Positions 1 to 6,966 of a stretch of DNA of 6,966 nucleotides are shown here, piece by piece. The notes below the pieces were generated by a model. That model did no database searches. It was not told the DNA's origin and was given only the letters and a program-made list of their open reading frames with translations. Made by a program: the position numbers and the translations under genes. Positions within the stretch are counted from its first letter, which is position 1, and each line of letters opens with the position of its first letter. The DNA is from a virus (taxonomy: Duplodnaviria; Heunggongvirae; Uroviricota; Caudoviricetes), in IMG/VR virus record IMGVR_UViG_2534682338_000001, positions 1 through 6,966 of that record. One strand, written 5' to 3'.

Positions 1-260
1 TGCGCACACCAGTCGGCTCACGGGTGATGCGTCGTGATTACGGCTCGTTGCTGGCGTCAATGATTGACCAGCCGCAGACCCCGGCGCTTGAGTTGCAGAT
101 TAAGGTCGCCTGTTACATGGCGGTGCTGAAATGGGAACCCCGCGTCACCCTGTCATCCGTCACCACTGAGCGCAGTTTTGACGGGCGAATGACGGTCACG
201 TTAACCGGCCAGCACAACGACACCGGCCAGCCACTTTCGTTAACCATCCCTGTGAGTTGA
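1..260 (+). CDS. W: Baseplate assembly protein W (P2 gpW family), 3' portion; the 5' end lies upstream of the window
   Basis: The frame is open from nt 3 with no upstream stop, so the GTG at 24 in the ORF track is probably internal. Translation (..YGSLLASMIDQPQTPALELQIKVACYMAVLKWEPRVTLSSVTTERSFDGRMTVTLTGQHNDTGQPLSLTIPVS) is recognisable as the C-terminus of P2 gpW. Stop at 258-260 lies 4 nt before the J start; high GC; synteny W-J-I-H-G. Confidence 0.8.
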   Translation, partial: RTPVGSRVMRRDYGSLLASMIDQPQTPALELQIKVACYMAVLKWEPRVTLSSVTTERSFDGRMTVTLTGQHNDTGQPLSLTIPVS

Positions 261-264
261 AACC

Positions 265-1173
265 ATGCCGATTATCGACCTGAACCAGCTACCCGCACCG
301 GATGTGGTCGAGGAGCTGGACTTTGAAACCATTCTTGCCGAACGCAAGGCGACACTGATTTCCCTTTACCCGGAAGACCAGCAGGAGGCGGTCGCCCGTA
401 CCCTGACGCTGGAATCCGATCCTCTCGTCAAACTGCTGGAGGAAAATGCGTATCGCGAGCTTATCTGGCGTCAGCGTGTGAATGAGGCTGCACGGGCGGT
501 GATGCTGGCCTGTGCAGTCGGTAATGACCTTGATGTGATTGGTGCCAATTACAACACCACGCGCCTGACTATCACCCCGGCAGATGATTCGACTATCCCG
601 CCGACACCGGCAGTGATGGAGTCTGACACCGATTATCGTCTGCGTATTCAGCAGGCGTTTGAAGGCTTAAGCGTCGCCGGGTCGGTGGGAGCCTATCAGT
701 ATCATGGTCGCAGTGCCGACGGGCGTGTCGCGGATATCTCTGTCACCAGTCCGTCTCCGGCCTGTGTCACCATCTCTGTGCTGTCACGTGAAAATAACGG
801 TGTGGCATCTGAAGACCTGCTGGCTGTGGTGCGCAACGCCCTGAATGGCGAGGACGTCAGACCGGTGGCCGACCGTGTGACCGTGCAGTCTGCCGCCATC
901 GTTGAATACCAGATAAATGCCACGCTTTACCTTTACCCTGGCCCCGAAAGCGAACCCATTCGCGCTGCCGCCGTGAAAAAACTGGAAGCGTACATCACGG
1001 CACAGCACCGGCTGGGGCGCGACATCCGTCTGTCTGCCATTTATGCCGCCTTGCATGTGGAAGGCGTGCAGCGTGTCGAACTGGCTGCACCACTGGCCGA
1101 CATCGTGCTCAACAGTACGCAGGCGTCTTTCTGCACCGAATACCGCGTCGTGACCGGAGGCTCGGATGAGTGA
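265..1173 (+). CDS. J: Baseplate assembly protein J (P2 gpJ family, baseplate wedge)
   Basis: 302-aa ORF, the length I recall for P2 gpJ; N-terminus MPIIDLNQLPAPDVVEELDFETILAERKA.. is recognisable as gpJ; tight spacing after W and an 8-nt overlap with I (ATGAGTGA), typical of coupled P2 late genes. Confidence 0.9.
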   Translation: MPIIDLNQLPAPDVVEELDFETILAERKATLISLYPEDQQEAVARTLTLESDPLVKLLEENAYRELIWRQRVNEAARAVMLACAVGNDLDVIGANYNTTRLTITPADDSTIPPTPAVMESDTDYRLRIQQAFEGLSVAGSVGAYQYHGRSADGRVADISVTSPSPACVTISVLSRENNGVASEDLLAVVRNALNGEDVRPVADRVTVQSAAIVEYQINATLYLYPGPESEPIRAAAVKKLEAYITAQHRLGRDIRLSAIYAALHVEGVQRVELAAPLADIVLNSTQASFCTEYRVVTGGSDE

Positions 1174-1696
1174 TTCGCGCCTGCTGCCGACCGGCTCATC
1201 ACCGCTTGAAGTCGCTGCCGCGAAAGCCTGTGCGGAAATTGAAAAAACGCCGGTCAGTATTCGTGAGCTGTGGAACCCGGACACCTGCTCGGCAAATCTG
1301 CTGCCGTGGCTGGCGTGGGCGTTTTCGGTCGACAGGTGGGATGAAAAGTGGCCGGAAGCGACAAAACGCGCCGTTATCCGCGATGCCTATTTCATCCACT
1401 GTCATAAGGGCACGATAGGTGCAATCCGACGTGTGGTGGAGCCGCTCGGCTATCTCATCAACGTGACGGAGTGGTGGGAAAACAGTGACCCGCCCGGCAC
1501 CTTCCGGCTCGATATTGGTGTACTGGAAAGCGGTATCACAGAGGCAATGTATCAGGAAATGGAACGGCTGATTGCTGATGCCAAACCTGCAAGCCGTCAC
1601 CTTATTGGTCTGAACATTACCCGGGACATTCCCGGCTACCTGTTCGCCGGTGGTGTGGCTTACGACGGCGATGTAATTACGGTTTACCCCGGATAA
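1166..1696 (+). CDS. I: Baseplate/tail protein I (P2 gpI family)
   Basis: 176-aa ORF matching the length I recall for P2 gpI; start overlaps the J stop; followed 10 nt later by H with a GAGG Shine-Dalgarno at about 1697-1700. Confidence 0.88.
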   Translation: MSDSRLLPTGSSPLEVAAAKACAEIEKTPVSIRELWNPDTCSANLLPWLAWAFSVDRWDEKWPEATKRAVIRDAYFIHCHKGTIGAIRRVVEPLGYLINVTEWWENSDPPGTFRLDIGVLESGITEAMYQEMERLIADAKPASRHLIGLNITRDIPGYLFAGGVAYDGDVITVYPG

Positions 1697-1706
1697 GTGA
1701 GGAATA

Positions 1707-3893
1707 ATGAGCACAAAATTTAAAACCGTTATCACCACTGCCGGTGCAGCAAAGCTGGCAGCGGCAACCGCACCGGGAGGGCGGAAGGTCAACATTACCA
1801 CGATGGCCGTCGGGGATGGCGGTGGTAAATTGCCTGTCCCGGATGCCGGGCAGACCGGGCTTATCCACGAAGTCTGGCGACATGCGCTGAACAAAATCAG
1901 TCAGGACAAACGAAACAGTAATTATATTATCGCAGAGCTGGTTATTCCGCCGGAGGTGGGCGGTTTCTGGATGCGTGAGCTTGGCCTGTACGATGATGCG
2001 GGAACGCTAATTGCCGTGGCAAACATGGCCGAAAGTTATAAACCAGCTCTTGCCGAAGGCTCAGGGCGTTCGCAGACCTGTCGCATGGTCATCATCGTCA
2101 GCAGTGTGGCCTCAGTGGAGCTGACCATTGACACCACAACGGTGATGGCGACGCAGGATTACGTTGATGACAAAATTGCAGAGCACGAACAGTCACGACG
2201 TCACCCGGACGCTTCGCTGACCGCAAAAGGTTTTACTCAGTTAAGCAGTGCGACCAACAGCACGTCTGAAACACTGGCCGCAACGCCGAAAGCGGTAAAG
2301 GCCGCGTATGACCTTGCTAACGGGAAATATACCGCACAGGACGCCACCACAGCGCGAAAAGGCCTTGTTCAGCTGAGTAGCGCCATCAACAGCGATTCTG
2401 AAACGCTTGCGGCAACGCCAAAGGCGGTTAAGACAGCGTATGACCTTGCTAACAGGAAATACACTGCACAGGATGCCACCACAGCGCGAAAAGGTCTTGT
2501 CCAGCTAAGTAGCGCCACCAACAGTGATTCTGAAACGCTGGCCGCAACATCAAAAGCGGTGAAGTCTGCCTATGACAATGCTGAAAAACGTCTTCAGAAA
2601 GATCAGAATGGTGCGGATATTCCGGGAAAGGATACCTTCACGAAAAATATCGGTGCCTGTCGTGCTTATAGCGGCGCTTTGAGCACTGAAGCCGGAAACT
2701 GGACAACCGCTCAGTTTATTGAATGGCTGGATTCCCGTGGTGCATTTAATCATCCGTACTGGATGTGCAAAGGCTCCTGGTCATATGCAAATAACAAAAT
2801 CATTACGGATACCGGATGTGGTGATATCCACCTGGCTGGTTGTGTCGTCGAGGTCATGGGAACTAAATCTGCAATCACTATCCGAGTGACCACACCGACA
2901 ACATCAAGCGGTGGCGGTACAACCAGCGCACAATTCACTTACATTAATCATGGGGACGGCTACTCCCCCGGCTGGCGTCGTGACTGGAATCGTCAGGGCG
3001 ACGCAATGACCGGAACGATTAATCAGGACGGTGGAAGCCAGAATGCCTATATGTCTACGGCCTTATGTTCAGGCACAAGAGGCGGCAAAAAATATCTCAG
3101 AAAGTTTCGTGGTGGAGAAGGAGACACTATCTGGCATGAAACAGTACAGGGCGGGGTAGTTCGTTGGGCGACTGGTAATACTGATGCTCAGGAAGAATTA
3201 TCACTCAGCTCCGCTTATGGTCTCCGTTCAAGAGGTGAGATTACATCACTCAGTGCTAATGGTCTGCGCATTGCTTATGGCAATTATGGTTTCTTTATCA
3301 GGAATGATGGCAGCAGCACTTATTTTATGTTGACTAAATCAGGTGACAGATTAGGAACTTATAATAATTTAAGACCGCTGATTATAAATGATGCCACTGG
3401 TGCTGTATCAATGGGGCATGGCCTGAATGTTACTGGTGATATTGTCTCAAGTACCAAAGTACGTGCCGGTAGCGGGAAAAAATTCACGGTCAGCAGCAGT
3501 AATACATCCACGAAGGAAGCCGCATTCAATTTGTGGGGAAACTCAAGTCGTCCGGTGGTGGCTGAATTAGGTGATGATGCAGGCTGGCATTTTTACAGTC
3601 AGAGAAATACAGATAACAGCATCACTTTTGCTGTTAACGGGCAGGTATCACCATCTAACTATGGCAACTTTGATTCACGCTATGTCCGGGATATCCGGCT
3701 TGGTGGTGCTGCCACATACAAACCTGCGAACAATGGCATGACATGGACACATCAGGCACCGTCCGGGTGTGTATATTCCGGCATTATTGTTCAGGATACC
3801 GGCTCAAACTCTGCCGATAACATTGGTGGCATATATTACAGACCGGTGCAGAAATACATTAACGGGACATGGTATAACGTAGCGCAGGTATAA
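1707..3893 (+). CDS. H: Tail fibre protein H (P2 gpH family): conserved high-GC N-terminal baseplate-attachment part, internal tandem repeats, divergent low-GC C-terminal receptor-binding part
   Basis: 728-aa ORF with N-terminus MSTKFKTVITTAGAAKLAAATAPGGRKVNITTMAVGDGGGKLPVPDAG.. typical of P2-like gpH; SD GAGG upstream; the SETLAATPKAVKxAYD motif recurs as in many tail fibres; sample-line GC drops from about 68% (line 1741) to about 40% (lines 3301, 3361). Confidence 0.9.
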   Translation: MSTKFKTVITTAGAAKLAAATAPGGRKVNITTMAVGDGGGKLPVPDAGQTGLIHEVWRHALNKISQDKRNSNYIIAELVIPPEVGGFWMRELGLYDDAGTLIAVANMAESYKPALAEGSGRSQTCRMVIIVSSVASVELTIDTTTVMATQDYVDDKIAEHEQSRRHPDASLTAKGFTQLSSATNSTSETLAATPKAVKAAYDLANGKYTAQDATTARKGLVQLSSAINSDSETLAATPKAVKTAYDLANRKYTAQDATTARKGLVQLSSATNSDSETLAATSKAVKSAYDNAEKRLQKDQNGADIPGKDTFTKNIGACRAYSGALSTEAGNWTTAQFIEWLDSRGAFNHPYWMCKGSWSYANNKIITDTGCGDIHLAGCVVEVMGTKSAITIRVTTPTTSSGGGTTSAQFTYINHGDGYSPGWRRDWNRQGDAMTGTINQDGGSQNAYMSTALCSGTRGGKKYLRKFRGGEGDTIWHETVQGGVVRWATGNTDAQEELSLSSAYGLRSRGEITSLSANGLRIAYGNYGFFIRNDGSSTYFMLTKSGDRLGTYNNLRPLIINDATGAVSMGHGLNVTGDIVSSTKVRAGSGKKFTVSSSNTSTKEAAFNLWGNSSRPVVAELGDDAGWHFYSQRNTDNSITFAVNGQVSPSNYGNFDSRYVRDIRLGGAATYKPANNGMTWTHQAPSGCVYSGIIVQDTGSNSADNIGGIYYRPVQKYINGTWYNVAQV
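2220..2580 (+). repeat. About 2.6 copies of a diverged 132-bp (44-codon) in-frame tandem repeat inside H
   Basis: Unit starts (CAG Gln codons) at 2238, 2370 and 2502, exactly 132 nt apart. Encoded units: QLSSATNSTSETLAATPKAVKAAYDLANGKYTAQDATTARKGLV / QLSSAINSDSETLAATPKAVKTAYDLANRKYTAQDATTARKGLV / QLSSATNSDSETLAATSKAVKSAYDNAEKR.. (third partial). Nucleotide identity between units is roughly 80-85% by eye. Confidence 0.8.
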
Positions 3894-3896
3894 TTT

Positions 3897-4424
3897 ATGC
3901 AGCATTTGATAAATATAATGGCGGGTAATCCAAAAACAGTTGAACAATATCAATTGACAAAGGGCTTTGATGTTGTCTGGTTTTTTACAGAAGATGGTAA
4001 GAACTGGTACGAAGAACAAAAGTATTTTGCTGATGACACGATAAAAATAGCGTACGACAAAGATAATATCATCCGCTATGTGGAAAAGGATGTGACAGCT
4101 ATCAGACCGGATGGATTAAGTGTGGTTGAAGTGGCGGATATTACTGCTAACCGACGGGCGGATATTTCAGGGGGCTGGATGTTTAAGGACGGCAAAGTGA
4201 TTAAACGCATTTATACGGCGGAGGAATTACAGCAGCAGGCAGAAATTCGGAAAGCCAGACTTCTTGCAGATGCTGAATCCGTGATTTTGCCGCTGGAGCG
4301 CGCGGTCAGACTGAACATGGCAACAGAGGAGGAGCGCACACGGCTGGAGGCTTGGGAACGCTACAGCGTTCTGGTCAGTCGTGTGGATCCTGCAAATCCT
4401 GAATGGCCGGAAATGCCGCAATAA
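3897..4424 (+). CDS. G: Tail fibre assembly chaperone G (P2 gpG / Tfa family)
   Basis: 175-aa ORF starting 3 nt after the H stop, matching the P2 gpG length; C-terminus ..[43 protein letters not shown] is recognisable as gpG. The N-terminal third is low GC (about 32% on line 3901) and the C-terminal part high GC (about 57% on line 4261), suggesting mosaic exchange together with the H distal domain. Confidence 0.88.
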
Positions 4425-4485
4425 GTTGTATGAACTCTGGTGTGAGCTTACACATCTATGGCACAGAGTAAAGCCTAATCTGACA

Positions 4486-4513
4486 GTCCGCTCTGTGCCA
4501 GAAGCGGACTTTA
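4486..4513 (+). terminator. Candidate weak intrinsic terminator downstream of G
   Basis: 6-bp stem GTCCGC (4486-4491) / GCGGAC (4504-4509) with a 12-nt loop, followed by TTT. It overlaps a second inverted repeat, GGCACAGAG (4460-4468) / CTCTGTGCC (4491-4499). The T-tract is short, so terminator function is uncertain. Confidence 0.3.
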
Positions 4514-4551
4514 GCAGAGTAGAGATTATCAATAGTGCAAAAAATAACTGG

Positions 4552-4590
4552 TTGAAACATTTGTACGTAAATGTTAGTTGTATTTAGATA
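4552..4590 (+). promoter_or_regulatory. Candidate sigma70-type promoter for the cargo gene
   Basis: TTGAAA at 4552-4557 is a good -35 hexamer, followed by AT-rich sequence with only poor -10 candidates (for example TAGATA at about 4585-4590). Position is about 40-80 nt upstream of the cargo start. Not verified. Confidence 0.25.
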
Positions 4591-4618
4591 AGGTCGTAGG
4601 ATATTTTATTCACATAAA

Positions 4619-5101
4619 ATGGAGTTTAATATGGAAGACTCTTGTAAGAAAAAAATAATGGTTGTTGTTGGAGCTGGCGCTTCGGTTGAATTAGGTATGC
4701 CAAGTGTCAGTGAGATAGATAAGCTGTTTTCGTTATGGGCGAAAGATGGTTACACTTTAGCTAGTGATAAAGATAAAAGTTTGTATTGCTACATTAAGGA
4801 GGAGGTTAATCGTCATTATGGATTGAATCCAAAAAAAGAATTAAGAAAAGAAACTAATTTTGAAGAGTTATTATATGTAATCCTTAATTTATCAGCAGCC
4901 TTGGGGGATAATAACTACAATTTTCCAATGAATGCATTCTGGGGAATAAGGGAACTTCCAAAAATAATTGGAGTTAATGGTGAGAAGTCGGTTGATGGAA
5001 ATGATTTAAGGCACCTTTACTCAAGGTTGAATGATAAACTAATTGGGGAATTTAGAGAGCGTTGTAAAATCGTTAAGGAGGAAAAAAAGAGGAGTTTTTA
5101 G
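4619..5101 (+). CDS. SIR2-like NAD-binding protein, N-terminal fragment (Rossmann GAGAS..GMP motif) of a frame-disrupted single gene; likely true start is the ATG at 4631
   Basis: Translation ..KKKIMVVVGAGASVELGMPSVSEIDKLF.. carries the hydrophobic-GAGxS-x3-GxP signature of the sirtuin/DHS-like NAD-binding fold. GGAG at 4621-4624 sits 6 nt before the ATG at 4631, while the ATG at 4619 has no SD. GC is about 28-38% on sample lines. The ORF ends at TAG 5099-5101 immediately after an A7 tract (5082-5088), while the SIR2 domain continues in frame +1. Confidence 0.7.
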   Translation: MEFNMEDSCKKKIMVVVGAGASVELGMPSVSEIDKLFSLWAKDGYTLASDKDKSLYCYIKEEVNRHYGLNPKKELRKETNFEELLYVILNLSAALGDNNYNFPMNAFWGIRELPKIIGVNGEKSVDGNDLRHLYSRLNDKLIGEFRERCKIVKEEKKRSF

Positions 5102-5886
5102 TTTTTGAAAAATTTATTAACCAACTTAATAATGACTATGACGTTGCTTTTATTACATTAAATTATGACAATCTTATAACTCAAGCTTGTCCAACTCTTT
5201 TTACTGGCTTTAGCAAAAGTACTGGCTTATTTGAAGAGGCAAGTGTTTATGCACAGTCTAAGTGGGGTTTAATTTATCATCTGCATGGTTCAGTTCACTT
5301 TGATATGCAAGGAACCCACTCAGATATGCATGCTGTCAAATGGAATAATGACTTACACTCTGAATTCAATCAGAATGCTTTTGGTAGAAACTCACAAAAT
5401 ACCTCTGAAGGTATAAGCATACCAACCTCGGCAATTGTCGCTGGTTACGCCAAAACCAGTCAGATTCAGCGGGTACCATTCCGTACTTATTACTCGAAGA
5501 TAGATGAGATTGCTTATAAAGCAGATGCTTATTTGTTTTTAGGGTATGGGTTCAATGATCCTCATCTAAATAACTCCCTGCATTCAATAAGAGATGGTAA
5601 ACATAATAAACCAGTCGTTATTATAGACTGGGCATCAGACACCCAAGACCCGATGCGGTTTAGACACGATGAGTGGTCTATAAATCTATGTAAGACTGTT
5701 CGTTCTAATGCTAATGAAATGGCAACGAGAAATTATAAGCACTCGGCTCCAGAAATAAGTAAATTAAAATCCACAGGAGCATTTGAAGTATCTTGCAATC
5801 CAGATTACCCATTATCAATTTGGTATGGTGGTTTTATACAAGCCTGCTCAAATTTTGATAAAATAAAATATGAATTAGGCATGTAA
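5077..5886 (+). CDS. SIR2-like protein, C-terminal part (catalytic Asn and His motifs plus GYGFND motif), reading frame open from 5077; same gene as 4619-5101, separated by a frameshift
   Basis: The frame of ORF 5305-5886 is open back to 5077 (stop TAA at 5074-5076) and reads GGKKEEFLVFEKFINQLNNDYDVAFITLNYDNLITQACPTLFTGFSKSTGLFEEASVYAQSKWGLIYHLHGSVHFDMQGTH.. The Asn codon in TLNYD is at 5161-5163 and the His codon in HLHG at 5284-5286, 41 residues apart, matching the roughly 38-40 residue Asn-to-His spacing I recall for defence SIR2 domains (ThsA, DSR2). ..AYLFLGYGFNDPHL.. at about 5540-5565 resembles the distal SIR2-like motif. There is no ATG between 5077 and 5305, so this segment cannot be translated alone. 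Confidence 0.7.
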   Translation, partial: GGKKEEFLVFEKFINQLNNDYDVAFITLNYDNLITQACPTLFTGFSKSTGLFEEASVYAQSKWGLIYHLHGSVHFDMQGTHSDMHAVKWNNDLHSEFNQNAFGRNSQNTSEGISIPTSAIVAGYAKTSQIQRVPFRTYYSKIDEIAYKADAYLFLGYGFNDPHLNNSLHSIRDGKHNKPVVIIDWASDTQDPMRFRHDEWSINLCKTVRSNANEMATRNYKHSAPEISKLKSTGAFEVSCNPDYPLSIWYGGFIQACSNFDKIKYELGM

Positions 5887-5940
5887 GCAATAAATTAGTT
5901 TATGTTAGTTAAGAGTAGCCTGGGGATGTCTGGCCTAGTC

Positions 5941-5968
5941 AAAAGCGGATTTTGTCATGTCCGCTTTT
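5941..5968. terminator. Perfect 9-bp inverted repeat hairpin (AAAAGCGGA / TCCGCTTTT, 10-nt loop); possible weak bidirectional terminator after the cargo gene
   Basis: AAAAGCGGA at 5941-5949 pairs perfectly with TCCGCTTTT at 5960-5968. The A/T-run symmetry would give a U-tract on either strand; the GC core is only 4 bp, so strength is doubtful. Confidence 0.35.
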
Positions 5969-6051
5969 CGCTCAAAGCAGACTGTCAGAATTGATAGCGT
6001 TTGGGCTATGTAAATTGTCAGTCGGAAAATGAGTGAGTACAAATCAGGACA

Positions 6052-6078
6052 GGCGGGCGAATTGCCCGCCTTTTCTTT
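6052..6078 (+). terminator. Rho-independent terminator separating the cargo unit from the sheath promoter
   Basis: GGCGGGC (6052-6058), loop GAATT, GCCCGCC (6064-6070), followed by TTTTCTTT (6071-6078): a GC-rich 7-bp stem plus T-tract. Confidence 0.7.
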
Positions 6079-6094
6079 ATCTGTTGTTTCATCC

Positions 6095-6165
6095 ACTGAC
6101 CAGCCAGGTCAAATAGCGTCTCAGGCACGGCCCAATAGAAAATAGTTGCACCCATTAACCACGGA
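6095..6165 (+). promoter_or_regulatory. Candidate P2-type activator-dependent late promoter (PF-like) plus SD for FI
   Basis: Dyad TGACC-AGCCA-GGTCA at 6097-6111, resembling the partial-dyad element (TGT-N12-ACA class) that lies about 55 nt upstream of P2 late promoter starts; AT-rich possible -10 around 6136-6146 (AATAGAAAATA); GGAG at 6162-6165 sits 9 nt before the ATG at 6175. Assignment is from recalled P2 promoter architecture. Confidence 0.4.
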
Positions 6166-6174
6166 GTTAAACGG

Positions 6175-6852
6175 ATGAGTGACTATCATCACGGCGTGCA
6201 GGTGCTGGAGATTAACGACGGCACCCGCGTCATGTCCACCGTATCCACCGCCATTGTCGGCATGGTCTGCACGGCCAGCGATGCGGATGCGGAAACCTTC
6301 CCCCTCAATAAACCGGTGCTGATTACCAATGTGCAGAGCGCAATTGCAAATGCCGGTAAAAAAGGCACGCTGGCGGCATCGTTGCAGGCCATCGCCGACC
6401 AGTCAAAACCGGTCACCGTTGTCGTGCGTGTGGAAGACGGCACCGGCGACGACGAGGAAACGAAACTCGCGCAGACCGTTTCCAATATCATCGGCACCAC
6501 TGACGAAAACGGTCAGTACACCGGACTGAAAGCCCTGCTGGCGGCGGAGTCGGTAACCGGTGTTAAACCGCGTATTCTTGGTGTGCCGGGGCTGGATACC
6601 AAAGAGGTGGCTGTTGCACTGGCATCAGTCTGTCAGAAGCTGCGCGCTTTCGGGTATATCAGCGCATGGGGCTGTAAAACCATTTCCGAGGTGAAAGCCT
6701 ACCGCCAGAATTTCAGCCAGCGTGAGCTGATGGTCATCTGGCCGGATTTCCTCGCATGGGATACAGTCAACAGTACCACCGCCACCGCGTATGCCACCGC
6801 CCGTGCGCTGGGTCTGCGTGCCAAAAATCGACCAGGAGCAGGGCTGGCATAA
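6175..6852 (+). CDS. FI: Tail sheath protein FI (P2 gpFI family), 5' portion; the frame is broken from about 6824 and sheath-like coding continues in shifted frames to the window end
   Basis: N-terminus MSDYHHGVQVLEINDGTRVMSTVSTAIVGMVCTASDADAETFPLNKPVLITNVQ.. is recognisable as P2-type sheath. The ORF stops at TAA 6850-6852 after 225 aa, whereas this family is about 390-400 aa. The last 66 nt (6901-6966) are back in the original frame and read ASVFWDLQESGTDADLLNESGV. Confidence 0.85.
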   Translation: MSDYHHGVQVLEINDGTRVMSTVSTAIVGMVCTASDADAETFPLNKPVLITNVQSAIANAGKKGTLAASLQAIADQSKPVTVVVRVEDGTGDDEETKLAQTVSNIIGTTDENGQYTGLKALLAAESVTGVKPRILGVPGLDTKEVAVALASVCQKLRAFGYISAWGCKTISEVKAYRQNFSQRELMVIWPDFLAWDTVNSTTATAYATARALGLRAKNRPGAGLA

Positions 6853-6966
6853 AAACGCTGTCCAAACGTCGGGGTAAAACGGTGTTAACCGGCATCAAGC
6901 GCGTCCGTATTCTGGGATTTGCAGGAGTCCGGTACCGATGCTGACCTGCTTAACGAGTCTGGCGTC

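Follow-up and report, generated by a model that had tools for sequence, protein, structure and literature searches.

The fun locus is the second defence-enriched hotspot of phage P2 according to Vassallo et al. 2022 (PMC9519451), and the cargo that P2 itself carries in this slot, fun(Z), blocks phage T5. A different P2 hotspot, gpA-gpQ, was analysed by Rousset et al. 2022 (PMC9122126). Here we describe a cargo island at the fun position in a 6,966-nt stretch of DNA from a tailed virus (Caudoviricetes; IMG/VR record IMGVR_UViG_2534682338_000001, positions 1 to 6,966). This whole stretch is called the window below, and positions refer to it unless another locus is named. The island carries a single gene of the SIR2 family, which is split over two open reading frames (ORFs) in the window. 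On balance, we favour the interpretation that the island is an acquired Z/fun cassette encoding a stand-alone SIR2_2 anti-phage effector that hydrolyses nicotinamide adenine dinucleotide (NAD+), and that the break in the gene is a probable artefact. Both the hotspot and SIR2-based depletion of NAD+ are established, and the island as such is expected biology. The most interesting lead is the structure of the cassette, which is bounded by repeats.

The cargo slot between G and FI

In the reference annotation of P2, the gene order is G, fun(Z), FI, which makes the interval between G and FI in the window the Z/fun position. The left anchor, G, is annotated as a tail fiber assembly gene in loci L001 and L002 as well as in P2. 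A preliminary description of the window had already placed an AT-rich cargo island at this position, one at which P2-like prophages carry varied anti-phage systems, and the larger part of that account was borne out. Specifically, the interval from the G stop codon (4424) to the terminator ahead of FI (4425-6050) has a G+C content (GC) of 0.360, with 100-nt windows ranging from 0.24 to 0.48, as compared with 0.527 in the second half of G and 0.574 in FI. On the left, the drop is real, though less singular than claimed, as low GC is also seen in the C-terminal part of H (0.454) and in G over its first half (0.394). With two breakpoints fitted locally by likelihood, the composition changes at 4509 and 6044; the segmentation that scores best globally begins at 3175, to the left of the island.

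The alignment to other P2-like phages that the preliminary description had called for defined the borders of the island more narrowly than its composition did. Homology to five P2-like phages, which carry five different cargoes, stops at 4512-4517 (4541 in one case) and restarts at 5957-5960, based on BLAST. Thus, the swappable unit is 4513-5956, within the low-GC interval of 4425-6050. At a GC of 0.349 versus 0.527 and 0.574 in the flanks, this unit is compositionally foreign.

The slot is common and this cargo is rare. The flanks occur in about 1,127 of 5,426 complete Escherichia coli genomes, and the SIR2 cargo in two of the 5,426. Alternative cargoes at the site in complete E. coli genomes include a restriction endonuclease, DUF4145 and DUF6615 proteins, and a fun-like lysogenic-conversion protein. 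The SIR2 cargo was present in none of the records of the phage collection searched. The island shows the features of the variable G/FI hotspot: a location between G and FI, conserved flanks around differing cargo, and foreign composition. On these sequence grounds, we regard the island as a horizontally acquired cassette in an already known defence hotspot. The cargo gene, a SIR2, is itself of a defence type.

One element of the preliminary description did not survive, namely that the island is a unit inside the late operon. Mapping from P2 placed the activator site of the F operon at approximately 6082-6107 and its transcription start at approximately 6149-6151, directly after the conserved terminator. 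Because these signals map just upstream of FI, the V operon (V W J I H G) ends before the slot and the F operon starts beyond it. By this homology, the G/FI slot separates two late operons and is not internal to one.

The flanks of the cassette are mosaic. Relative to L001 and L017, the window has 22 substitutions in FI (6249-6960) and just two in the 6.2 kb leftward. Locus L018 has no substitution relative to the window anywhere, and L020 differs in H (2114-3336). Differing FI and H alleles tied to one SIR2 cassette are expected of homologous recombination in the flanks.

The SIR2 gene and its product

In loci L001 and L002, the start codon assigned by RefSeq (locus position 6207) corresponds to position 4631 of the window. 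The island contains two ORFs, 4619/4631-5101 and 5305-5886, in different frames; no further ORF of at least 60 amino acids (aa) was found in the island besides the two SIR2 frames. The N-terminal ORF is identical to residues 1-153 of an intact protein of 418 aa (P0001; WP_069907393.1). The preliminary description overlooked both the frameshift and the inverted hairpin repeats discussed below. Its single-gene payload holds for the intact allele in relatives, and the window itself has two ORFs, the product of a contracted A-run.

The frameshift was traced to a run of seven A residues. The run has eight A residues in all seven of the other copies compared. In two complete genomes with the longer run, RefSeq annotates a 'SIR2 family protein', the intact 418-aa WP_069907393.1. 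Comparison of the window with L018 revealed no substitutions over 6,966 bases, all differences being seven single-A indels. Six of these are insertions (6823, 6851, 6864, 6876, 6887, and 6897), each of which extends an A or an A-run. They sit within the last 145 bases and truncate the essential sheath gene FI at 6852; the cluster at 6823-6897 looks like a degraded contig end or a homopolymer error. The truncated SIR2 products were absent from a collection of approximately 15 billion proteins, in which the intact protein occurs on 129 contigs. Based on the absence of substitutions relative to L018 and on the six further A insertions that break FI, the contraction from A8 to A7 is probably a sequencing or assembly artefact, and at most a very recent private mutation. 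For annotation practice, the lesson is that a homopolymer artefact can make one gene of such an island look like two ORFs.

The repaired protein matches Pfam SIR2_2 (PF13289) at 2.1e-14, scoring 54.3 bits against a cut-off of 24.5, and this is its sole Pfam domain. The above-threshold profile and the GxGxS, N-x-D, and H-G-S motifs place it in the SIR2_2 superfamily. Residues G14, G16, N178, D180, H219, G220, and S221 are invariant across 60 homologs sharing 40-76% identity. An AlphaFold2 model calculated from the alignment of these 60 homologs was confident, with a mean predicted local distance difference test score (pLDDT) of 92.9 and a predicted template modelling score (pTM) of 0.91. Structurally, the nearest kin are the NADase subunits of SIR2-HerA and Nezha; in the alignment to PsSIR2, TLNYD corresponds to TTNYD and HLHGS to KLHGS. 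A PADLOC search, also suggested in the preliminary description, returned the generic SIR2 and Aga_SIR2 (Argonaute-associated) models alone, at approximately 1e-18, and the protein matched no named PADLOC single-gene system. NCBIfam gave no match, and PHROGs gave a weak match to a family of unknown function.

When 1.84 billion representative proteins were searched with a profile, 248 cluster representatives reached E ≤ 1e-30. The full-length members are all 400-460 aa with end-to-end profile coverage and no fusions. By this criterion, they form a compact SIR2-only family of approximately 250 clusters at 50% identity, which is named in no curated library.

The preliminary description had further proposed that the island has its own promoter and terminators. 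The terminator ahead of FI was recovered as a strong intrinsic terminator at 6051-6071. In addition, a terminator-like hairpin lies at 5941-5968, in which the end of the cargo is paired with the inner arm of the right boundary repeat. The latter was skipped by a consensus terminator scan as its loop exceeds 8 nt. The promoter was not recovered. A scan for sigma-70-like promoters found just two sites, both internal, versus 5.3 expected by chance, and a laxer scan accepting 8/12 matches over 4475-4635 found none. The 118 nt preceding the SIR2 start have a GC of 28%. A promoter-like sequence, TTGAAA-17-AATAAT (10/12), lies at 5105-5133, just 3' of the frameshift, and is at chance level. We infer, rather than observe, independent expression of the cargo.

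Proposed function and competing explanations

The evidence for an NAD+-hydrolysing effector comes from the protein's fold, its intact motifs, its structural relationship to known NADases, and the genomic settings of its gene. In the mechanism we propose, the SIR2 protein would be held inactive in the lysogen until triggered by a superinfecting phage. Once triggered, it would deplete the cell of NAD+ so that the infection aborts, and the resulting abortive infection or superinfection exclusion would protect the lysogen population and the resident prophage. We infer the NADase activity, the trigger, the autoinhibition, the abortive outcome, and the transcription of the gene. If the protein defends alone, it would be among the smallest SIR2 defence proteins, and the question would become how a SIR2 protein of the HerA-dependent type senses infection and curbs its toxicity without HerA.

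Several points weigh against this interpretation. The scan found no sigma-70-like promoter upstream of the SIR2 gene. The closest structural relatives need HerA, which leaves a stand-alone SIR2 protein without a demonstrated route for sensing infection. SIR2 domains may also be deacylases or ADP-ribosyltransferases. The literature searched contained no experiment on the 400-460-aa SIR2-only family. Finally, the A7 allele may be real: the A8 run is the longest homopolymer in the region and would be a natural mutational hotspot, and selection could favour losing a toxic effector.

A real A7 allele is the alternative with the best standing, albeit an unlikely one. The gene would then have become a pseudogene recently, or would represent the OFF state of a contingency switch that works by strand slippage at the A8 run, perhaps selected because of the cost of the effector. 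The indel lies mid-contig, away from the degraded 3' end, in a classic substrate of replication slippage. Moreover, the active site would be incomplete in both fragments: N178, D180, and H219 are missing from the N-terminal one, and the C-terminal frame has its first start codon (5305) beyond H219. However, seven single-A indels without a single substitution relative to L018, six of them ruining the sheath gene, are the pattern of error. Similarly, none of the seven other copies has A7, and the products of the A7 allele are missing from the 15-billion-protein collection. Homologs do not keep the A-run, so nothing points to selection for a switch.

The intact protein may instead serve in something other than NAD+-depleting defence, as a deacylase, an ADP-ribosyltransferase, or a non-defence lysogenic-conversion factor. 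SIR2_2 is the only recognisable domain, and the NADase role is predicted. The Z/fun slot also bears NUDIX and HAD hydrolases, and the functions of integron cassettes, one of which holds a homolog (see below), are diverse. We consider such a role quite unlikely.

The genomic contexts bear on whether a defensive SIR2 protein would act alone. The neighbours of the gene and of its homologs differ in every context, and no conserved partner was found. In the P2-like slot of E. coli, the SIR2 gene is alone. A Vibrio parahaemolyticus homolog, 73% identical, lies between attC-type repeats (7840-7970 and 9260-9389 of L003) as a single-gene integron cassette, within a 17-kb array that holds 24 copies of the repeat. 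This superintegron (L003 1-17263) also carries AbiJ_NTD4, HEPN_RiboL-PSP, YfbU, NTP_transf_6, and HNH_2/DUF6157 cassettes, and several of these are defence-like. In Shewanella and on one metagenomic contig, the copy is found in similar arrays, made up of small genes on one strand with toxin-antitoxin pairs among them, and the Pectobacterium copy and a copy on another contig adjoin insertion sequence (IS) elements. In L016, a homolog is part of a defence island with a DUF4238 gene on one side, a separate SIR2 and HerA pair on the other, and a TIR-TPR gene nearby; the HerA belongs with the separate SIR2 protein of 544 aa. An identical SIR2 protein is encoded in a CP4-type island (L019) whose genes include an AIDA-type (Ag43-like) autotransporter, a YeeP-like GTPase, an antirestriction protein, RadC, and AlpA. 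The SIR2 family has been captured independently by P2 phages, CP4-type islands, cassette arrays of Vibrio and Shewanella, and defence islands.

A further alternative is a split system, in which the partner of the SIR2 protein is encoded elsewhere. The partner might be a HerA-like ATPase, as the closest structural relatives are obligate partners of HerA. Another candidate is a 414-aa protein encoded between S and V in the prophages of L017, L018, and L021 (300-1544, minus strand), which has no Pfam match and is annotated in RefSeq as 'ATP-binding protein' (WP_000648253.1). This S/V position is another cargo slot, which we take to be the orf30 position of P2. However, the CP4-type island L019 has the identical SIR2 cassette, and the 414-aa gene is not within 7 kb of it. 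Similarly, the Vibrio, Shewanella, Pectobacterium, and metagenomic homologs share no common neighbour, and the Vibrio copy is a one-gene cassette. A split system is therefore very unlikely.

A programmed frameshift, in which a -1 ribosomal slip on A_AAA_AAG (5083-5089) or polymerase stutter would yield both a 156-aa fragment and the full-length enzyme, is scarcely credible: a heptamer of the form X_XXY_YYZ, which we take to be a dnaX-type slippery site, is present in the 0 frame of 4631, and a -1 slip would restore the exact wild-type KEEKK-EEFLV, but the relatives are all single-frame with A8, the homologs lack an A-run at this position, no downstream stimulatory structure was detected (fold of 5060-5140, z = +1.08), the upstream AGGAGG directly abuts the heptamer, whereas the stimulatory position in dnaX is approximately 10-14 nt upstream, and the heptamer arises solely as a by-product of the deletion. 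A programmed frameshift and phase variation at the A-run were dropped on the first three of these counts.

Boundary hairpins and comparison with known systems

The cassette is flanked by a left and a right repeat (IR-L and IR-R; Table 1). These are 31 nt long, are 84% complementary, and constitute the longest inverted repeat of the region. Each also folds on itself, as a GTCCGCT-N10-AGCGGAC hairpin. Both are present in all P2-like phages compared, P2 included; in the P2 slot, the two hairpin halves lie apart, with the cargo between them. Within the conserved left flank, TGGCACAGAG (4456-4468) is the exact reverse complement of CTCTGTGCCA (4490-4502), the arm and loop of the left hairpin, and this pairing adds a second layer of inverted symmetry.

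The same repeats occur in CP4-type islands: at 6849-6879 and 8330-8360 of L019, 1546-1576 of L022, 2457-2487 of L024 and L025, and 2430-2460 of L026. The DNA common to the window and L019 spans 4475-5988 and begins 1-2 nt from the outer end of the left repeat. Near-identity ends at approximately 5974, in the loop of the right repeat, and is followed by a diverged version of that repeat. In another genome, the L019 island site has a TIR-domain gene between the same repeat pair; in others, the site is empty. The TIR cassette, found in 111 genomes, occupies three more island positions, and the hairpin pair flanks it at every one. Across these contexts, the inner arm and loop of each hairpin are common and the outer arm diverges.

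The hairpins are not confined to E. coli. Among species-representative genomes, an exact 22-mer taken from the left hairpin was found in 36 stretches, which come from Enterobacter, Pantoea, Pectobacterium, Yersinia, Klebsiella, Erwinia, Rahnella, Citrobacter, and other genera. P2 tail genes are absent from all 36. In total, 101 hairpins of the two loop types were counted in these loci, versus none in shuffled sequence, and nearly all of those in a given locus share one orientation. Left-type hairpins read GTCCGCT-CTGTGCCAGA-AGCGGAC, and right-type hairpins read GTCCGCT-TTTCGCTCAa-AGCrGAC. In loci of Pantoea, Yersinia, Erwinia, and Enterobacter, arrays were found in which doublets of a right-type and a left-type hairpin, approximately 66 nt long and in many cases with AAC…GTT ends, lie between units of 0.54-1.8 kb. 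The two types are near-complementary (20/24 positions), such that a doublet can also form a single long, imperfect palindrome. The genes enclosed by hairpin pairs are mixed and encode GNAT, SDR, and isochorismatase enzymes, regulators, small unknown ORFs, and defence-like proteins. Inspection of the 4-14 kb array flanks by motif and by eye, not by hidden Markov model (HMM), revealed no ORF resembling an integron integrase or tyrosine recombinase. Rfam gave no match for the boundary hairpins at E ≤ 1, and the literature search found no paper containing the hairpin sequences verbatim. A case for compensatory evolution of the stems was withdrawn: across 137 copies, stem pairing was 85%, no better than in column shuffles.

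It is conceivable that an unrecognised system of cassette exchange in the Enterobacterales uses these hairpins as its recombination sites, a proposal we regard as speculative and rather unlikely. It draws on the occurrence of the same repeat pair around the SIR2 cassette in the CP4-type island, on the TIR cassette at four island positions with common inner arms and loops and diverging outer arms, and on the co-oriented doublets that separate small cassettes in other genera. If it is true, the Z/fun slot would be a docking site for defence cassettes, which would be shuttled in a hairpin-specific, integron-like or REPIN/RAYT-like manner, and exchange at Z/fun would go beyond mere swapping by homologous recombination. 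The repeat-bounded cassette offers a testable handle on the traffic of defence genes between phages and genomic islands.

The coordinates of the features are collected in Table 1. Within H, three tandem units of approximately 132 nt (2225-2582), which are 76-83% identical, encode a Phage_fiber_2 tail-fibre repeat.

Table 1. Features of the window and, in the last row, of hairpin arrays in other loci
Feature	Position	Strand	Basis or remarks
Gene W	24-260		Pfam-assigned P2-type late gene
Gene J	265-1173		Pfam-assigned P2-type late gene
Gene I	1166-1696		Pfam-assigned P2-type late gene
Gene H	1707-3893		Pfam-assigned P2-type late gene
Gene G, tail-fibre assembly	3897-4424	+	Caudo_TAP 1.5e-33; closes the V late operon and anchors the slot on the left
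Conserved left flank (P2 backbone)	4425-4512	+	GC 0.477; BLAST versus five P2-like phages
Left hairpin repeat IR-L, TCTGACA-GTCCGCT-CTGTGCCAGA-AGCGGAC	4479-4509	.	Fold z = -3.05
Exchangeable AT-rich cargo cassette, 1,444 bp	4513-5956	+	GC 0.349; homology breakpoints, composition, rarity
Shine-Dalgarno sequence and start codon	4621-4633	+	GGAG 4621-4624, 6-nt spacer, ATG 4631; read from sequence
SIR2 gene, whole	4631-5886	+	418 aa when intact; two ORFs joined
SIR2, N-terminal part, frame 2	4631-5101	+	GAGxS NAD-binding loop; premature TAG from frameshift
SIR2, C-terminal part, frame 1	5077-5886	+	Open from 5077; TLNYDN, HLHGS, GYGFND motifs; first start 5305
A7 homopolymer causing the frameshift	5082-5088	+	A8 in the seven other copies compared; 0-frame context A_AAA_AAG
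Terminator-like hairpin AAAAGCGGA-N-TCCGCTTTT	5941-5968	+	55 nt past the SIR2 stop; minimum free energy (MFE) -20.8 kcal/mol, z = -3.25
Conserved right flank (P2 backbone)	5957-6174	+	Terminator 6051-6080 and F-operon activator site/start by P2 homology
Right hairpin repeat IR-R, GTCCGCT-TTTCGCTCAA-AGCAGAC-TGTCAGA	5959-5989	.	Inverted repeat of IR-L
Intrinsic terminator with T-tract before FI	6051-6071	+	9-bp stem, 7 GC pairs; MFE z = -3.95
FI (tail sheath), 5' part	6175-6966	+	Pfam Phage_sheath_1, Gp18_domIII_N; right anchor of the slot
Examples of doublet arrays (from loci L027-L062)	L033 959/1808/2492/3301; L037 3261/4090/4946; L043 1230/1769; L056 7502/9310/10991		

With the Z/fun locus of P2, the island shares its position, its conserved flanks, and an AT-rich, foreign, and variable cargo. 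It differs in that the cargo is a SIR2 gene on the + strand, and a rare one. The cargo is not among the systems named in the consulted part of Vassallo et al. 2022 (PMC9519451).

The cassette resembles integron gene cassettes in being a discrete, repeat-bounded, single-gene unit that recurs in unrelated elements, and the organisation of the hairpin doublets resembles integron attC sites or REPIN elements. In contrast to integron cassettes, the E. coli repeats are two inverted hairpins of 24-31 nt, not attC sites of the Vibrio type, and the breakpoints lie in or next to the hairpin loops, not at a GTT core. The literature searched on integrons and defence makes no mention of SIR2.

Canonical sirtuin deacylases contain a Cys4 zinc module; the SIR2 protein of the window (the window protein) has no CxxC pairs and hence no such module. 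ThsA of Thoeris has a C-terminal SLOG/STALD domain and is accompanied by the TIR gene thsB, whereas the window protein has the SIR2_2 domain alone; ThsA models match just 24 residues at E ~1e-4, and the island contains no TIR gene. In DSR1 and DSR2, which Garb and colleagues reportedly described in 2022 as large single proteins of about 1,000 aa or more, the SIR2 domain is coupled to a C-terminal domain of more than 600 aa, as compared with 418 aa in total, SIR2 only, in the window protein. Avs5 (SIR2-STAND), the SIR2-APAZ protein of SPARSA (pAgo), and KomC likewise couple SIR2 to a recognisable sensor or partner, unlike the window protein. The single-gene SIR2 that Rousset et al. cloned (pFR88) is not the same as the window protein, as it is of a different lineage and from a P4 hotspot.

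The closest comparison is with SIR2-HerA and Nezha (GAO_19; PDB 8w9l, 8yhx, 8j4u, 8uae, and 8sub), whose SIR2 subunits are of the same structural type. Identity to these subunits is 17-19%, and approximately 120 residues are unaligned, including a beta-rich insertion at approximately 225-270 and the C-terminal ~70 residues. Moreover, no herA gene (DUF87/FtsK-like ATPase) is adjacent in any of the contexts compared. The window protein plausibly acts like the SIR2 subunit of SIR2-HerA, as an NADase, rather than as a member of that system.

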